A stretch of 6,407 nucleotides of DNA, from the IMG/VR virus record IMGVR_UViG_648276668_000001, positions 1 through 6,407 of that record; one strand, 5' to 3'. Position 1 is the stretch's first letter, and the number at the start of each line of letters is the position of its first letter. This document shows, in pieces, positions 1-6,407 of the stretch. Origin of the DNA: a virus. Lineage: Duplodnaviria; Heunggongvirae; Uroviricota; Caudoviricetes. The notes under the pieces were generated by a model that worked only from the letters and a program-made list of their open reading frames with translations, was not told where the DNA came from and ran no database searches. Made by a program: the position numbers and the translations under genes.

Positions 1-2
1 TT

Positions 3-2108
3 GGCTGTACCAGCCGGGGGCAGGCACACCGCGCCGGGCTGTGGCTGATTAAAACGGAACTGCTGGAGACGCAGACCGTGGATTTCAGCGTGGGTGCTGA
101 AGGGCTTCGCCATGTACCGGGCGATGTCATTGAAATCTGCGATGATGACTATGCCGGTATCAGCACCGGTGGTCGCGTGCTGGCGGTGAACAGCCAGACC
201 CGGACGCTGACGCTCGACCGTGAAATCACGCTGCCATCCTCCGGCACCACGCTGATAAGCCTGGTTGACGGTGAGGGTAATCCGGTCAGCGTGGAGGTCC
301 AGTCCGTCACCGACGGCGTGAAGGTGAAAGTGAGCCGTGTTCCTGACGGCGTTGCTGAATACAGCGTGTGGGGGCTGAAGTTGCCGACGTTGCGCCAGCG
401 CCTGTTCCGCTGCGTGAGTATCCGTGAGAACGACGACGGCACGTATGCCATCACTGCCGTGCAGCATGTACCGGAGAAAGAGGCCATCGTGGATAACGGG
501 GCGCACTTTGACGGCGACCAGAGCGGCACGGTGAATGGTGTCACGCCGCCAGCGGTGCAGCACCTGACTGCCGAAGTCACCGCAGACAGCGGGGAATATC
601 AGGTACTGGCCCGCTGGGACACGCCGAAGGTGGTGAAGGGCGTGAGCTTCCTGCTTCGCCTGACCGTGGCAGCGGACGACGGCAGTGAGCGGCTGGTCAG
701 CACGGCCCGGACGACGGAAACCACATACCGCTTCACGCAACTGGCGCTGGGGCGTTACACGCTGACAGTCCGGGCGGTAAATGCGTGGGGGCAGCAGGGC
801 GATCCGGCATCGGTATCGTTCCGGATTGCGGCACCGGCAGCGCCTGTCACTATTGAACTGATACCAGGGTATTTTCAGATAACAGCGGTCCCGAAACTGG
901 CTGTATATGACCCGACGGTGCAGTTTGAGTTCTGGTTCTCGGAAAAGCGGATTACCGATATCAGGCAGGTTGAAACCAGCGCGCGTTATCTTGGTACGGC
1001 GCTGTACTGGATAGCCGCCAGTAGCAATATTAAGCCGGGTTATGATTATTACTTTTATATCCGCAGCGTGAACACTGTTGGTAAATCGGCATTTGTGGAG
1101 GCCGTCGGTCGGGCGAGCGATGATGCGGAAGGTTATCTGAATTTTTATAAAGGGTTGATCAATAAAACGCATCTCGGCAAGGAACTGCTGGAAAACTTTG
1201 AGCTGACGGAAGATAACGCCAGCAAACTGGAGGAGTTTTCGAAAGAGTGGAAGGACGCTAACGATAAATGGAATGCCATGTGGGGCGTCAAAATTGAGCA
1301 GACCAAAGACGGCAAACATTATGTCGCGGGTATTGGCCTCAGCATGGAGGATACGGAGGAAGGCAAACTGAGCCAGTTCCTGGTTGCCGCTAACCGTATC
1401 GCGTTTATTGACCCGGCAAACGGGAATGAAACGCCGATGTTTGTGGCGCAGGGCAACCAGATATTCATGAACGAAGTGTTCCTGAAGTATCTGACGGCTC
1501 CCACCATTACCAGCGGCGGTAATCCTCCGGCATTTTCCCTGACACCGGACGGGCGGCTGACGGCGAGAAATGCTGATATCAGCGGTAACGTGAATGCGAA
1601 CTCCGGGACGCTCAATAATGTCACGGTAAATGAAAACTGTACGATTAAGGGCATGCTGGAGGCGAACCAGGTCAGAGGTGACTTCGTTAAAACTGTATCC
1701 AAATCATTCCCGAAAAAGGCTGGTACGTGGGGTAACACGGAAACACCAAACGGGACGGTTACAGTCACCATTTACGATGATCATAACTTTGACCGCCAAA
1801 TCATTATTCCGCCCATTATTTTTAACGGTGTGGCGTATGACGATCCGGGGAGCGGTAATAACCCGGGAGGTACGCGATACACGGGTTATGGTTTTGAAGT
1901 TCGCAAAAATGGCGTATTAATCGCATCCAGAGAAACTAAAGGAGCCATTCCCGGTAGTTACAGTGCGGTTATTGATATGCCGAGTGGTGGTGGTAACGTC
2001 ACTCTGGAGTTTAAGATTTTCCAGAAAGGCAATCAGGGCGCAGGTAACATCACAGACTGTACGGTGATTGTGACCAAAAAAGCTGCTTCCGGTATCAGTA
2101 TCCGTTGA
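3..2108 (+). CDS. J: Host-specificity / tail-tip protein (lambda J-like), C-terminal ~700 codons; 5'-partial, gene continues upstream of the window
   Basis: The reading frame is open from position 3 with no stop until TGA at 2106-2108. The provided ORF (78..2108) starts at an internal GTG, but translation of bases 3-77 gives [26 protein letters not shown], continuous with it. From memory, the [51 protein letters not shown] stretch matches lambda J. Two fibronectin-III-like segments are present (e.g. ...[32 protein letters not shown]...), followed by a distal C-terminal domain that in J-type proteins carries receptor specificity. Confidence 0.9.
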
Positions 2109-2129
2109 AATATTTATAACCCCAATACG

Positions 2130-2155
2130 GGCGCCAGAAATGGCGCCTTTTTTAT
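2130..2155 (+). terminator. Rho-independent terminator between J and stf
   Basis: Perfect 7-bp GC-rich stem GGCGCCA (2130-2136) / TGGCGCC (2141-2147) with a GAAA tetraloop, immediately followed by TTTTTTATTT (2148-2157). It lies 22 nt after the J stop. Confidence 0.6.
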
Positions 2156-2168
2156 TTGTGGAGTGAGT

Positions 2169-4541
2169 ATGGCAGTACAGATTTCAGGTGTGCTGAAAGA
2201 TGGTGCGGGAAAACCAATACAGAACTGCACTATTCAACTGAAGGCAAAGCGTAACAGCACCACGGTACTGGTGAACACGGTGGCCTCTGAAAATCCGGAT
2301 GAAGCCGGGCGTTACAGCATGGATGTTGAGTATGGCCAGTACAGCGTTATCCTGCTGGTTGAAGGTTTTCCGCCTTCACATGCCGGAACCATTACCGTCT
2401 ATGAAGGTTCCAGACCAGGTACGCTGAATGATTTTCTCGGTGCCATGACGGAAGATGATGTCATGCCGGAGGCATTGCGTCGTTTTGAGGCAATGGTGGA
2501 AGAAGCGGCACGCAACGCTGAAGCCGCCTTTCAGAGCGCAGCGGCGGCAAAGAAATCCGAAGCTGCTGCGGCATCATCGAAGAACGCGGCGAAAAGCTCA
2601 GAAACGAATGCAGCTAACAGCGCACAGGCGGCAGCGGCCTCACAGACTGCATCGGCAAACTCCGCGACAGCAGCCCAAAAATCAGAAGCCAACGCGAAAA
2701 ATAGCGAAACAGCCGCAAAGACGAGTGAAACCAACGCGAAGTCCAGCCAGACGGCAGCGAAAACCAGCGAAACGAATGCCAAAGTCAGTGAAACTGCAGC
2801 GAAAAACAGCCAGGCTGCAGCAGCTGAAAGCGAGAGCGCAGCAGCCGGTTCTGCGACTTCAGCAGCTGGATCAGCAACTGCTGCGGCTAACAGCCAGAAA
2901 GCTGCGAAGGCGAGCGAAACTAACGCAAAGTCCAGCCAGACGGCAGCGAAGACCAGCGAAACGAATGCCAAAGCCAGCGAAACTGCGGCGAAAAGCAGTC
3001 AGGATGCAGCAGCCGAAAGCGAGAGTGCTGCAGCTGGTTCTGCAAGCGCGGCGGCTGCTTCTGCCACTGCATCAGCTAACAGTCAAAAAGCAGCAAAAAC
3101 CAGTGAAACCAACGCAAAGGTGAGCGAAACAGCGGCTGCGAACTCAGCGAAAGCATCGGCAGCAAGCCAGACGGCAGCTAAAGCAAGCGAAGATGCAGCC
3201 AGAGAGTACGCAAGCCAGGCTGCGGAGCCGTATAAATATGTCTTACAGCCGCTGCCTGATGTGTGGATACCATTTAACGATTCGCTGGATATGATTACGG
3301 GCTTTTCGCCGTCATATAAAAAGATTGTTATTGGTGATGATGAAATAACGATGCCTGGCGACAAGGTTGTTAAGTTTAAACGCGCATCGAAAGCAACCTA
3401 TATTAATAAATCTGGTGTGCTGACAGAGGCTGCCATTGACGAGCCACGGTTTGAACGTGATGGCCTGCTTATTGAGGGGCAAAGAACGAACTACATGCTC
3501 AATTCGGAAAGCCCTGCCAGTTGGGGGCGATCGTCAAATATGGATGTGCCCGAAACCGGGACGGATAGTTTTGGTTTTACCTATGGAAAGTTTGTCTGTA
3601 ACGATTCTCTGATTGGGCAAACCTCAGCCATTAATATGGCATCAATTGCTGCAACAAAGTCAGTTGATGTCTCAGGCGATAATAAACACGTGACAACCTC
3701 ATGTCGTTTTAAAACAGAACTGCAGGTAAGGTTGCGTATCCGGTTTGATAAATATGACGGTAGCGCAACAACTTTTCTTGGTGATGCGTATATTGATACA
3801 CAAACGCTTGAAATTAATATGACAGGCGGTGCTGCCTCAAGGATTACAGCGAGAGTCAGAAAGGACGAAGCTACCGGATGGATTTTTGCAGAGGCAACAA
3901 TTCAGGCAATTGATGGGGAGTTAAAAATAGGTTCTCAGATACAGTATTCTCCTAAGCAGGGCGGGGCAACCGTATCTGGTGACTATATTTATCTGGCCAC
4001 CCCACAAGTAGAAAATGGGCCTTGTGTATCATCTTTTATTATATCAGGAACGACGGCGGCGACCCGCGCAAGCGATATAGTTACAGTTCCAATTAAGAAT
4101 AATCTTTATAATCTTCCTTTTACGGTTCTTTGTGAGGTACATAAGAACTGGTATAAAACGCCAAATGCAGCGCCGCGTGTTTTTGACACCGGCGGTCATC
4201 AAACCGGAGCGGCTATTATTCTTGGCTTCGGTTCTTCAGCAGATTACGACGGATTTCCTTATTGCGATATTGGAGGAGCTAACAGACGGGTAAACGAAAA
4301 CGCATCGCTTGAAAAAATGGTTATGGGGATGCGTGTAAAGTCAGATCAGTCTACGTGCTCAGCAAGTAACGGGCGTATATCCAGCGAAACAAAAACCACA
4401 TGGTCCTGTATTCAGAACACCGCAATTATCCGTATTGGAGGCCAGACTACAGCCGGGTTACGTCATTTATTTGGTCATGTCAGGAATTTCAGAATATGGC
4501 ACAAGGCATTGACTGATGCTCAGGTGGGGGAGTCAATCTAA
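2169..4541 (+). CDS. stf: Side tail fibre protein (Stf-like), mosaic: lambda-Stf-like N-terminus, repetitive Ala-rich shaft, distal domain ending in a LamG/concanavalin-like motif
   Basis: The provided ORF starts at GTG 2163, but ATG 2169 is preferred: GGAG at 2160-2163 sits 5 nt upstream, and the product then begins MAVQISGVLKDGAGKPIQNCTIQLKAKRNSTTVLVNTVASENPDEAGRYSMDVEYGQYSVILLVEGFPPSHAGTITVYEGS, which I recognise from memory as the lambda Stf N-terminus. Residues ~120-350 are A/S/T/K/E/N-rich tandem repeats. The distal ~440 residues are different in character and lower in GC, ending ...IIRIGGQTTAGLRHLFGHVRNFRIWHKALTDAQV, which resembles the C-terminal strand motif of LamG_3 / concanavalin-like lectin domains. 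Stop TAA at 4539-4541. Confidence 0.85.
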   Translation: MAVQISGVLKDGAGKPIQNCTIQLKAKRNSTTVLVNTVASENPDEAGRYSMDVEYGQYSVILLVEGFPPSHAGTITVYEGSRPGTLNDFLGAMTEDDVMPEALRRFEAMVEEAARNAEAAFQSAAAAKKSEAAAASSKNAAKSSETNAANSAQAAAASQTASANSATAAQKSEANAKNSETAAKTSETNAKSSQTAAKTSETNAKVSETAAKNSQAAAAESESAAAGSATSAAGSATAAANSQKAAKASETNAKSSQTAAKTSETNAKASETAAKSSQDAAAESESAAAGSASAAAASATASANSQKAAKTSETNAKVSETAAANSAKASAASQTAAKASEDAAREYASQAAEPYKYVLQPLPDVWIPFNDSLDMITGFSPSYKKIVIGDDEITMPGDKVVKFKRASKATYINKSGVLTEAAIDEPRFERDGLLIEGQRTNYMLNSESPASWGRSSNMDVPETGTDSFGFTYGKFVCNDSLIGQTSAINMASIAATKSVDVSGDNKHVTTSCRFKTELQVRLRIRFDKYDGSATTFLGDAYIDTQTLEINMTGGAASRITARVRKDEATGWIFAEATIQAIDGELKIGSQIQYSPKQGGATVSGDYIYLATPQVENGPCVSSFIISGTTAATRASDIVTVPIKNNLYNLPFTVLCEVHKNWYKTPNAAPRVFDTGGHQTGAAIILGFGSSADYDGFPYCDIGGANRRVNENASLEKMVMGMRVKSDQSTCSASNGRISSETKTTWSCIQNTAIIRIGGQTTAGLRHLFGHVRNFRIWHKALTDAQVGESI
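2724..3135 (+). repeat. In-frame tandem repeat inside stf: two ~189-bp (63-aa) copies plus a partial third, each built from ~42-bp (14-aa) sub-repeats
   Basis: Direct comparison: 2733-2921 (aacgcgaagtccagccagacggcagcgaaaaccagcgaaacgaatgccaaagtcagtgaaactgcagcg...) recurs at 2922-3110 (aacgcaaagtccagccagacggcagcgaagaccagcgaaacgaatgccaaagccagcgaaactgcggcg...) with few substitutions. At protein level TNAKSSQTAAKTSETNAKVSETAAKNSQAAAAESESAAAGSA... is followed by TNAKSSQTAAKTSETNAKASETAAKSSQDAAAESESAAAGSA.... Boundaries are approximate. Confidence 0.8.
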
Positions 4542-4822
4542 TGAAAGATTTAACACTCAAATTTGAAGACAGGGCCGACTTTTCGGCCTTTATGGAGAGT
4601 ATTGGCTATTATGATGACGAGTCGATGCAGGATGATATTCTTATCGACGTGATAGGTAACGCGTACAAAGAAACCGGAGAACTGACTGAAGATGGCGAAC
4701 CGGTATGTGTTAAGGAAGACGGATATTTTGTAAACGTGCGCATCATTAATGATTCGCAAATATCGTCATTATTCGATGAGTACGTGGTTGCTGTTGAGCA
4801 TCAACTTCGTGGCTGGATGTGA
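4541..4822 (+). CDS. Hypothetical 93-aa highly acidic protein, translationally coupled to stf; function unknown (candidate fibre chaperone/adaptor or DNA-mimic-like anti-defence protein)
   Basis: The ATG at 4541-4543 overlaps the stf stop (TAATG). A GGGGGAG Shine-Dalgarno-like stretch (4526-4532) sits 8 nt upstream. The product has 22 Asp+Glu against 7 Lys+Arg by my count (net charge about -15). I recognise no family motif. Confidence 0.6.
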   Translation: MKDLTLKFEDRADFSAFMESIGYYDDESMQDDILIDVIGNAYKETGELTEDGEPVCVKEDGYFVNVRIINDSQISSLFDEYVVAVEHQLRGWM

Positions 4823-4831
4823 GGAAGAAAA

Positions 4832-5872
4832 ATGGCTACATCGACAGTAATTCCTGATGACATCAAAACGCTAAAATCCGACGTTAGCAAATTAAAAAAC
4901 GATCAAGGAAGCTACGCAACAAAATTATATGTAGACAGCAAAGATGAAATCGTTGGTGACTGGTCTGCTTCATGGTATCAGCAGGTATTGCCAACTAGCG
5001 GAGCTATATTTGGGAGAAAACTCCGCTCAACTCACAGGACGGCAGGTGTTGAGGATGCGTATTGCGAACTATACCTCAAAAAATGGATAGACAGTCCAGG
5101 TAACGCAATGGCGCGCCTTAACCTGAACGATAACGGGACAAACATTTGCTGGGACTTTACCAACCTTTATGGCGGTACGATGATTTTTCCCGGTGACAGC
5201 GGATACCTCAAAATGGGTAACTGCCTTATGTCATACAGCAAGCGTGGAAGTAACGCGCTTATTAAATTTGATTACACCGACACATTACAGATCAAATATG
5301 CCAATCATGGGTCAACCATGACATTAAACACACAGGGAACCGCTTATGCTGGTGTTACTGCTCAATTGTGGGGCAACTCCAGCCGTCCTGTTGTTTATGA
5401 AGTCGGTGTTGATGGTGGCGCTTATATGTTCTATGCGCAGAAAAATACCGATAACACCTATATGTTAAGCGTTAATGGTGCATGTCATGCCACAGCATTT
5501 AACCAGCATTCCGACCGGGATCTGAAAGACAACATTCAGGTGATCGATAATGCAACCGACCGCATCCGTAAAATGAACGGCTATACATACACGCTTAAAG
5601 AAAACGGTATGCCCTATGCTGGTGTCATTGCACAGGAAGCTCTGGAAGCAATCCCAGAAGTTGTAGGTTCCGCAATGAAATATCAGGACGGTGCAAGCGG
5701 ATCGGAAGGTGAAGAAGGTGAACGTTATTACACAGTAGATTATTCTGGTGTTACTGGCTTGCTTGTTCAGGTAGCCAGAGAGTCAGACGACAGAATAACA
5801 GCACTGGAAGAAGAAAATGCAGAATTAAAACAAAGATTATCTGCAATTGAGGCGACGCTTGCGTCTAAATAA
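4832..5872 (+). CDS. Short tail-fibre/tailspike-like protein with a C-terminal intramolecular chaperone (peptidase S74-type) autoproteolytic domain
   Basis: GAGGAAG lies 5 nt upstream of ATG 4832. The C-terminal ~120 residues, HSDRDLKDNIQVIDNATDRIRKMNGYTYTLKENGMPYAGVIAQEALEAIPEVV...YYTVDYSGVTGLLVQVARESDDRITALEEENAELKQRLSAIEATL, carry the hallmarks of the self-cleaving chaperone domain seen in endosialidase tailspikes and T5 L-shaped fibre: SD..LK.NI at the predicted cleavage site (Ser227, codon 5510-5512), GVIAQE...PEVV, and a terminal coiled-coil-like segment. The N-terminal ~226 residues would be the mature product. GC is low. Confidence 0.8.
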   Translation: MATSTVIPDDIKTLKSDVSKLKNDQGSYATKLYVDSKDEIVGDWSASWYQQVLPTSGAIFGRKLRSTHRTAGVEDAYCELYLKKWIDSPGNAMARLNLNDNGTNICWDFTNLYGGTMIFPGDSGYLKMGNCLMSYSKRGSNALIKFDYTDTLQIKYANHGSTMTLNTQGTAYAGVTAQLWGNSSRPVVYEVGVDGGAYMFYAQKNTDNTYMLSVNGACHATAFNQHSDRDLKDNIQVIDNATDRIRKMNGYTYTLKENGMPYAGVIAQEALEAIPEVVGSAMKYQDGASGSEGEEGERYYTVDYSGVTGLLVQVARESDDRITALEEENAELKQRLSAIEATLASK

Positions 5873-5878
5873 TATTAA

Positions 5879-5898
5879 GGGGCCGAGCGCCCCGTTTT
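5879..5898 (+). terminator. Probable intrinsic terminator after the S74-domain gene
   Basis: GGGGC (5879-5883) / GCCCC (5889-5893) stem with a 5-nt loop, followed by GTTTTATT. The stem is short, so this is a weak-to-moderate call. Confidence 0.45.
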
Positions 5899-5914
5899 AT
5901 TGGGTAGGATGAAA

Positions 5915-6208
5915 ATGGATATAACACCTTTCCTTCATGCACTTTGTGCTGTGGCTGCGCAGGTACTGGTTGGTCTTTTTACCGGAAACTGGGCTTACGG
6001 GGCGATAGCCGGTTGTACGTTCTTCATTGCTCGTGAACATACCCAGGCAGAATATCGCTGGATTGAAATGTTCGGGCATGGCAAGCGTATGAATATGCCG
6101 TGGTGGGGTGGTTTTGATCCGCGCGTGTGGGATGTGGCAAGCCTGATGGATTTTTCTGTGCCGGTGGTGGCGTGTCTGCTGGTCTGGCTGTTGGTTAATC
6201 GTGGGTGA
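5915..6208 (+). CDS. Small hypothetical integral membrane protein (~98 aa, three predicted transmembrane helices)
   Basis: The provided ORF (5900..6208) starts at TTG. ATG 5915 is preferred because AGGA at 5906-5909 sits 5 nt upstream; ATG 5909 is an alternative. Three hydrophobic segments: ITPFLHALCAVAAQVLVGLFTG, WAYGAIAGCTFFIA and VASLMDFSVPVVACLLVWLLV. No lipobox and no recognisable catalytic motif. Stop TGA at 6206-6208. Confidence 0.55.
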   Translation: MDITPFLHALCAVAAQVLVGLFTGNWAYGAIAGCTFFIAREHTQAEYRWIEMFGHGKRMNMPWWGGFDPRVWDVASLMDFSVPVVACLLVWLLVNRG

Positions 6209-6218
6209 AAAAAGGTGA

Positions 6219-6347
6219 GCTGTATATGCAACGGAGGAAGAAACCTCGCTGCTGGAAGCCTGGAAAAAGTATCGGGTGTTGCTGAACCGTGTTGATACAT
6301 CAACTGCACCTGATATTGAGTGGCCTACGAACCCTGTCAGGGAGTAA
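6219..6347 (+). pseudogene. tfa: Remnant of a tail-fibre assembly gene (tfa): conserved C-terminal ~40 codons only, no start codon
   Basis: The frame opens directly after an in-frame TGA (6216-6218) and reads [42 protein letters not shown], ending at TAA 6345-6347. From memory, [30 protein letters not shown] is the conserved C-terminal motif of lambda-type Tfa proteins. There is no ATG/GTG/TTG in frame and no N-terminal ~150 codons. It is absent from the ORF track because it is short and start-less. Confidence 0.7.
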
Positions 6348-6362
6348 TCATTGGGGATTATG

Positions 6363-6396
6363 CCGCAGAAACGTTGTATGCAATAACGTTCTGCGG
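6363..6396. repeat. Imperfect inverted repeat / hairpin (12 bp stem with one bulge, 9-nt loop) just downstream of the tfa remnant
   Basis: CCGCAGAAACGTT (6363-6375), loop GTATGCAAT, then AACGTTCTGCGG (6385-6396). No T-run follows on either strand, so it is not a classical intrinsic terminator. It may be a protein-binding site or part of an element continuing beyond the window. Confidence 0.4.
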
Positions 6397-6407
6397 TTGG
6401 CTGATGC

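Follow-up and report, generated by a model that had tools for sequence, protein, structure and literature searches.

The window analysed here is the whole of a 6,407-nucleotide (nt) stretch of tailed-phage DNA (Duplodnaviria; Heunggongvirae; Uroviricota; Caudoviricetes), positions 1 to 6,407 of the IMG/VR record IMGVR_UViG_648276668_000001. It carries a side tail fibre gene (stf), a gene for a second, shorter fibre (ORF346, the mini-fibre) and, between the two, a 93-codon open reading frame (ORF), named ORF93, whose role is the subject of this study. The elements at this junction are as follows.

2163..4541, + strand: stf, side tail fibre gene, 792 amino acids (aa) from the GTG at 2163; the start annotated by PGAP is the ATG at 2169
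4526..4532, + strand: Shine-Dalgarno-like GGGGGAG for ORF93, read from the sequence, within the 3' end of stf
4541..4822, + strand: ORF93, 93 aa, small acidic alpha/beta protein, PHROG 1361
4832..5872, + strand: ORF346, 346-aa mini-fibre, PHROG 4563, with an S74 intramolecular-chaperone domain at its C-terminal side

A preliminary description of this DNA had reported a strongly acidic 93-aa ORF at 4541-4822 whose ATG overlaps the stf stop codon, and both observations were reproduced. The 10.7-kDa product contains 12 D, 10 E, 4 K and 3 R, giving a net charge of -15 on recount and an isoelectric point (pI) of 4.05. One base, 4541, is common to the stf stop TAA (4539-4541) and the ORF93 ATG (4541-4543) in the string TAATG, and the Shine-Dalgarno-like run is 8 nt upstream of this ATG. 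ORF346 starts 9 nt past the ORF93 stop, is preceded by GAGGA and is in the same reading frame as ORF93. For comparison, 80 close loci from IMG/VR were analysed together with the window (81 loci, with 38 distinct nucleotide versions of ORF93). The ORF93 start overlapped the fibre stop by 1 nt in 51 of these loci and by 4 nt in 25, so that 76 of the 81 displayed either TAATG or ATGA. This is the arrangement expected for translational coupling.

ORF93 is a real conserved phage gene under purifying selection. It had been considered earlier that the ORF might be untranslated, in which case orthologues would be broken or unconserved; instead, the 93-codon frame was unbroken in all 81 close loci and the median pairwise dN/dS over the 38 nucleotide versions was 0.23. 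Homologues reached down to ~25% identity while keeping eight family-wide invariant residues (M1, D3, G39, G61, N65, R67, R90 and W92). The small size alone would favour an untranslated chance ORF in the spacer between stf and ORF346, but this explanation is refuted by the conservation, and the confident structural model described below, the Shine-Dalgarno-like run and the stop/start overlap also speak against it; we assign it a negligible chance.

The AlphaFold2 (AF2) model of ORF93, based on a 34-sequence alignment, had a mean pLDDT (the predicted score of the local distance difference test) of 84 and a predicted template modelling score (pTM) of 0.70. Its predicted layout comprises a strand (residues 2-8), two helices (11-20 and 27-32), a long hairpin (33-48/54-68), a further helix (75-81) and a low-confidence C-terminal tail. 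PHROG 1361, a family of unknown function, matched ORF93 at an E-value (E) of 1.3e-45, with residues 1-93 aligned to profile positions 1-92 of 92, and PHROG 18574 was a second, weaker match that probably represents the rV5-like branch of the family. No match was obtained in Pfam, NCBIfam (both at E up to 1) or PADLOC for ORF93 or 24 diverse relatives, and profile searches of PDB with two alignments returned no relative. The remote-homology check proposed earlier, run here on sequence profiles (Pfam, NCBIfam and PDB), therefore gave no confident match to an unrelated characterised family. Of 5426 complete E. coli genomes, 988 carried DNA at least 80% identical to ORF93, in as many as five copies. 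Every named homologue is annotated as 'hypothetical protein', and the annotations in the BASEL phages read 'hypothetical' or 'tail fiber protein'.

The fibre encoded upstream begins with an N-terminal attachment domain of lambda type, continues in a repeat-rich shaft and ends in a C-terminal module of a non-lambda kind. Stf aa 3-133 matched Pfam phage_tail_N (E 1.6e-66), the full length matched PHROG 1419, and the PGAP annotation in E. coli HYM1 agrees. No S74 domain was detected in Stf in the Pfam search. Three parts of the C-terminal region are relevant to ORF93.

3255..3491, + strand: conserved 'neck' of the Stf C-terminal module, aa ~365-443, ...PRFERDGLLIEGQRTN
3468..4070, + strand: carbohydrate-binding beta-sandwich, 'GTA (gene transfer agent) head spike fibre' domain, Stf aa 436-636, NCBIfam NF048003
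4419..4538, + strand: C-terminal 40 aa of Stf, LamG-like last strand, ...RHLFGHVRNFRIWHKALTDAQVGESI

The neck is common to lambda-like, T1-like, T5-like and rV5-like fibres, with a column conservation of 0.8-0.94 in 13 diverse fibres and of at least 0.9 in 47 unique lambdoid fibres. The NF048003 profile ('phage head spike fiber domain') matched Stf aa 436-636 above its curated cut-off, and this domain falls mostly within a hypervariable stretch (aa ~453-752). In this middle part of the module, identity dropped to 39% among loci in which ORF93 was 91-100% identical, while the neck (here aa ~373-440) and the last 40 aa remained conserved in loci with a divergent middle. Conservation of the C-terminal 40 aa was 0.83-0.88 in lambdoid loci. 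The same LamG-like end motif closes every upstream protein in the distant loci described below, and a weak Laminin_G_3 match covered the homologous end in one locus (L093). We propose these 40 aa as the putative docking region of ORF93. The module also matched the RcGTA head fibre Rcc01080 in PDB, a capsule-polysaccharide-binding protein, and the homologous end of IrisVonRoten Gp22 is a galectin-like domain that protrudes from the fibre (Humolli et al.). The AF2 monomer of Stf aa 340-792 was poor (mean pLDDT 48, on a shallow alignment of 78-100% identity); it was usable only at aa 449-613, and the LamG-like end was not resolved in it.

Homologues of the small ORF were detected by tblastn in 181 phage records. 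These included lambda-like phages (2G7b, Tritos and phage 21), Drexlerviridae (KarlJaspers), Dhillonvirus (KarlBarth), Seuratvirus/Nonagvirus (JenP1 and SA126VB), T5-like phages (IrisVonRoten and L6jm) and Vequintaviruses (nimi). A divergent 88-aa subfamily (SelmaRatti and AKFV33) accounted for ~21 more records that were not listed with the window query. The same method gave 218 phage records for the fibre module, 195 of which had it at close to its full length, so that the two genes are nearly one-to-one. In every phage locus read, the last ~430 aa of the fibre before the small ORF were homologous to Stf aa 364-792, and the small ORF started within a few nt of the fibre stop. This obligate placement behind one fibre C-terminal module holds across at least six phage lineages (lambda-, T1-, T5-, rV5-, P2- and Mu-like) and also in betaproteobacterial prophages.

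More distant relatives, found by way of a remote family member, were located in IMG/VR contigs and in prophages of Buttiauxella, Cupriavidus, Burkholderiaceae and Comamonas. At ~30% identity the small ORF was still located behind a protein with the LamG-like last strand. These upstream proteins included P2 H-type fibres (Pfam Phage_tail_fib) and proteins of 350-480 aa that consist of little beyond the module. The genes downstream were a Mu GpP baseplate hub, a holin-like 75-aa protein or a lipoprotein in the distant loci and unrelated genes in phage nimi, while in phages 21, 2G7a and ev243 the small ORF was followed by a 97-aa membrane protein and no second fibre. In the lambdoids without mini-fibre, dN/dS of the small ORF was 0.27-0.41, and 62% aa identity persisted where dS was saturated. 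Since the upstream module is the sole universal neighbour, the small ORF most likely acts on or with that module.

Some single loci deviated from the common gene structure. In phage 4A7 (L128, 417-2833), stf was broken by transposase genes, and the small ORF and the membrane-protein gene downstream were intact. In two Comamonas prophages (L123 and L124), the small-protein domain formed the N-terminal half of a ~175-aa protein with the R-x-W/F motif in an internal position, indicating that a free C-terminus is not essential for this motif. A search for small proteins naturally fused to a fibre gave only one long match (P0177, 1797 aa), which was a spurious local match in an Ig-repeat protein and was rejected.

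The preliminary description had also considered that ORF93 might be a DNA-mimic anti-restriction or anti-defence protein, carried as cargo and merely located behind stf. The net charge and pI of ORF93 are in agreement with this proposal, and most family members have a pI of 4.0-4.6. However, the gene is fixed in the late tail-fibre operon of virulent and temperate phages alike, and the homologues of SelmaRatti and SA126VB are near neutral (net charge -3 and 0, pI 5.0 and 6.6). In addition, 12 of the 22 acidic residues are in two length-variable loops, the invariant residues include two Arg and one Trp, and no likeness to a known mimic (Ocr, ArdA and similar proteins) in fold or sequence was found for ORF93. 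The proposal did not survive the comparison, and we consider a DNA mimic very improbable.

The position of ORF93 was compared with that of known fibre chaperones. Behind the mini-fibre, the window retains a trace of one of them.

6228..6347, + strand: 3' remnant of a lambda-type tfa (pseudogene), 'tail fiber assembly protein, incomplete, missing N-terminus' by PGAP in a 99.6%-identical E. coli HYM1 prophage

It had been stated before that an intact Tfa is missing here, and indeed the window holds just this 3' end. The GC content of the Stf C-half (0.446), ORF93 (0.422) and ORF346 (0.441) differs from that of J (0.544), the Stf N-half (0.544) and the membrane-protein ORF (0.518). This GC break (3300-5872 vs the flanks) is consistent with one horizontally exchanged cassette. 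The remnant suggests that recombination brought in a cassette of fibre tip, ORF93, mini-fibre and membrane protein in place of the normal stf tip and of the tfa gene's 5' part.

Comparable replacements were observed in other lineages. In P2-like contigs, the small ORF is located behind an H-type fibre, which is the normal place of gpG. At the Vequintavirus fibre locus, the rV5 allele (gp41) has an S74/intramolecular-chaperone end with no small ORF before gp40, whereas in the nimi_170 allele the GTA-spike/LamG module forms the end, and next comes a 110-aa homologue without the C-terminal R-x-W tail; rV5 and nimi thus represent a natural allele swap at one locus. Likewise in T5-like phages, LtfA of DT57C ends in S74, while LtfA of the IrisVonRoten/AKFV33 type ends in the module and is followed by the small ORF. 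The presence of S74-ended alleles and of alleles with module and small ORF at the same loci suggests an equivalent service to the fibre C-terminus. ORF93 occupies the place of Tfa/gpG or, in alternative fibre alleles, that of the built-in S74 chaperone. In one P2-like prophage contig (L094, 2211-5401), the order is H-type fibre with the module, small ORF, 255-aa fibre-like ORF, Tfa-like 139-aa ORF and sheath, indicating that a second fibre with its own chaperone trails the small ORF there too.

The interpretation that we favour, with a probability of roughly 0.55, is that ORF93 serves the lectin-type fibre tip as its dedicated accessory protein or assembly partner, by binding to the conserved base or the C-terminal end of the tip. 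It is based on the following points: in the loci examined the small ORF was not found apart from the fibre module, while the downstream genes change or vanish; the slot of the chaperone is taken, as seen from the tfa stump, the P2-like H-type fibres and the rV5/nimi and DT57C/IrisVonRoten alleles; Stf of the window has neither an S74 domain nor an intact Tfa; the gene is kept under purifying selection in phages that have no second fibre (21, 2G7a and ev243); and the Stf C-half, ORF93 and ORF346 are alike in their low GC content, as one cassette would be. ORF93 would bind the module through a conserved face of a three-stranded sheet (D3, G39, G61, N65 and R67) together with its disordered tail (R90 and W92), and might in this way supply in trans the help in folding and trimerisation that lambda-type tips get from Tfa or gpG and that the intramolecular chaperone gives S74-type fibres in cis. 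From these comparisons we infer both the binding site and the chaperone action on the fibre. An assembly factor or adaptor replacing Tfa had been suggested before. The general form of this suggestion was supported by the strict synteny in at least six lineages and by the Tfa/gpG slot. The more specific suggestion, a link between Stf and the S74 mini-fibre, is possible but dispensable, since purifying selection maintains the gene in whole lineages that have no mini-fibre. The small ORFs would then constitute a new family of accessory proteins for fibres with a tip of the carbohydrate-binding module (CBM)/LamG type.

The downstream side of ORF93 provides arguments for a different role. Two further elements have to be considered here.

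4832..4879, + strand: N-terminal anchor of the mini-fibre, MATSTVIPDDIKTLKS, conserved in S74 fibres behind small ORFs
5879..5893, + strand: GC-rich hairpin and T-rich run, terminator-like by consensus scan alone, closing the stf-ORF93-ORF346 unit

The Peptidase_S74 domain of ORF346 covers aa 227-278 (nt 5510-5665, Pfam E 4.7e-14). S74 fibres bearing the anchor (consensus M-x-T-x-T-x-I-P-x-D-I-T/K-x-L-K) were found in T1-like, T5-like, Dhillonvirus and Seuratvirus phages. The S74 fibres downstream of small ORFs were of 225, 234, 346, 574 and 582 aa, and their common parts were the S74 end and a 16-32-aa anchor alone. In the phage database the anchor was seen only 10-14 nt behind a small ORF (nine of nine cross-checkable records), and the next shaft segment (aa 27-70 in the IrisVonRoten fibre) is common among other fibre proteins. 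A conserved island, made up of ORF93 and the N-terminal 16-32 aa of the protein after it, thus separates two hypervariable modules.

These features favour a role in the finished particle, where ORF93 would stay in the virion as a cap or joint on the conserved C-terminal end of the Stf trimer and provide a socket into which the anchor of the mini-fibre fits. The result would be a fibre that is branched or has two segments, and in lineages that lack a mini-fibre ORF93 would serve just as a cap. The same direction is indicated by the second fibre-like gene after the small ORF in P2-like contigs, by the label 'tail fiber protein' that BASEL annotators gave to homologues and by the assumption of Humolli et al. 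that Gp24 hangs on Gp22, with the joint left out of their model. However, the gene is under purifying selection in lineages that have no second fibre. The anchor is 56-81% identical between lineages and the small proteins only 25-53%, so that the anchor conservation fits docking on the fibre neck (72-84% identity) at least as well. Moreover, co-occurrence cannot tell whether the anchor binds the fibre module or the small ORF, as the two are always found together. The protein is reported in no virion proteome; the AKFV33 study covered four gel bands, and rV5 itself is without the gene. We regard a structural joint as the main alternative, tentative and less probable than the assembly partner. 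In its boldest and equally tentative form, ORF93 might be a 10-kDa universal plug-and-socket connector that caps the lectin-tipped proximal fibre and accepts the anchor of interchangeable S74-ended distal fibres. If so, lambda-like, T1-like, T5-like, Dhillonvirus and Seuratvirus phages would have one modular joint in common for branched, dual-specificity fibres.

Co-evolution was also analysed. In a Mantel mirror-tree comparison of 12 lineages, ORF93 correlated with both the fibre C-terminus and the mini-fibre anchor (r 0.83 and 0.78), as linkage alone predicts. An apparent co-divergence signal with five lineages was driven by one divergent clade, and among fibre segments conserved solely in phages with a distal fibre only two columns qualified.

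As the partner module is carbohydrate-binding and the RcGTA head fibre binds capsule, the acidic and strictly linked small protein might also have another fibre-linked role, either as a removable plug (or acidic-glycan mimic) that masks the lectin site until release or as a regulator of fibre deployment. However, the presumed glycan-binding part of the fibre varies freely with ORF93 unchanged, the acidity is missing in some subfamilies, and such a role has no precedent. We think it improbable, although less so than the DNA mimic.

Several features of the window lie outside the ORF93 neighbourhood proper. The Stf shaft is encoded by a 189-nt tandem repeat (2703-3119; 2.2 copies, 81% match, with nested 21- and 42-nt periods) and is rich in Ala, Ser, Thr and Lys. 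The gap between J and stf (2108-2163) contains a strong terminator-like hairpin at 2129-2148, with eight pairs followed by a T-run. It has no lom gene, whereas 2G7b and ev243 have a lom-like gene there. A 97-aa predicted membrane protein with two transmembrane segments (PHROG 1443, function unknown) is encoded at 5915-6208, in an ORF listed from 5900. It trails the fibre module in lambdoids with or without the S74 mini-fibre (21, 2G7a, ev243 and 2G7b) and could be a moron or have an exclusion function. Near the end of the window, an imperfect inverted repeat (6363-6375 / 6385-6396; CCGCAGAAACGTT ... AACGTTCTGCGG) immediately precedes the sitABCD cargo operon that is present in the matching E. 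coli genome.

Homologues of ORF93 are present in widely used model phages, including phage 21 and the BASEL phages IrisVonRoten, SelmaRatti, KarlJaspers and KarlBarth. No characterisation of the family was found in the literature searched. The small protein is unmentioned in the papers on DT57C, BASEL (2021, 2025), AKFV33, rV5, Gifsy-1, BF23, SIA3lw and OSYSP and in those of Eligo, and the published fibre model of IrisVonRoten omits it. A fibre helper is no surprise to specialists; yet the family is widespread, unnamed and relevant to fibre engineering. ORF93 marks a two-gene unit of a lectin-type tip with its small partner, and this unit moves between phage families that are not related to each other. 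Transplanting these receptor-binding modules, as in delivery particles with chimeric lambda Stf or in host-range engineering of T5-like and T1-like phages, would probably require carrying the small gene along. In loci of the AKFV33/IrisVonRoten type, the small gene is also the obvious candidate for the joint of the second fibre, which is blank in published models.

Lambda Tfa, P2 gpG and Mu U (Caudo_TAP) are among the closest known systems. Like ORF93, these proteins are encoded directly downstream of a fibre gene and coupled to it, and their presumed common role with ORF93 is to help the C-terminal end of the fibre assemble. However, Tfa/Caudo_TAP proteins have no sequence relation to ORF93 (no Pfam match at E up to 1), and the predicted fold differs. 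Tfa-type proteins are of roughly 175-200 aa, so that ORF93 is about half their length. Unlike the Tfa/gpG/U type, ORF93 does not vary in step with the variable receptor-binding region of the fibre and serves the CBM/LamG-like tip class. S74 chaperones (K1F endosialidase, T5 Ltf/pb1, DT57C LtfA/LtfB) act in cis and cleave themselves off, whereas ORF93 is a separate polypeptide with no S74 signature. By sequence comparison ORF93 matches neither the Tfa nor the S74 family and would accordingly be placed in neither.

Phage T4 provides functional analogies, namely gp57A, a small and possibly acidic trans-chaperone, gp38, an accessory protein bound to the tip, and gp35/gp36, the half-fibre junction. 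Homology of ORF93 to gp38, gp57A or gp35/gp36 was not detected in the Pfam or PDB searches, and these remain analogies alone. RcGTA Rcc01080 (GhsB) is a homologue of the partner module and not of ORF93; it is a single subunit that is attached to a pentameric base by its N-terminal peptide.

The branched fibres of DT57C and DT571/2, in which LtfA carries LtfB, are encoded by two-gene loci where the first fibre is believed to carry the second, which has an S74 end (Golomidova 2016; Ayala 2023). The DT57C papers describe the locus as the two genes ltfA and ltfB, and the passages retrieved from them by term searches mention no small ORF. DT57C LtfA is itself S74-ended, and the DT57C-type fibres match the IrisVonRoten distal fibre at aa 27-70 alone and not at the anchor. 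The T5-like counterpart of the stf-ORF93-ORF346 arrangement in the window is found in the loci of the AKFV33/IrisVonRoten type.

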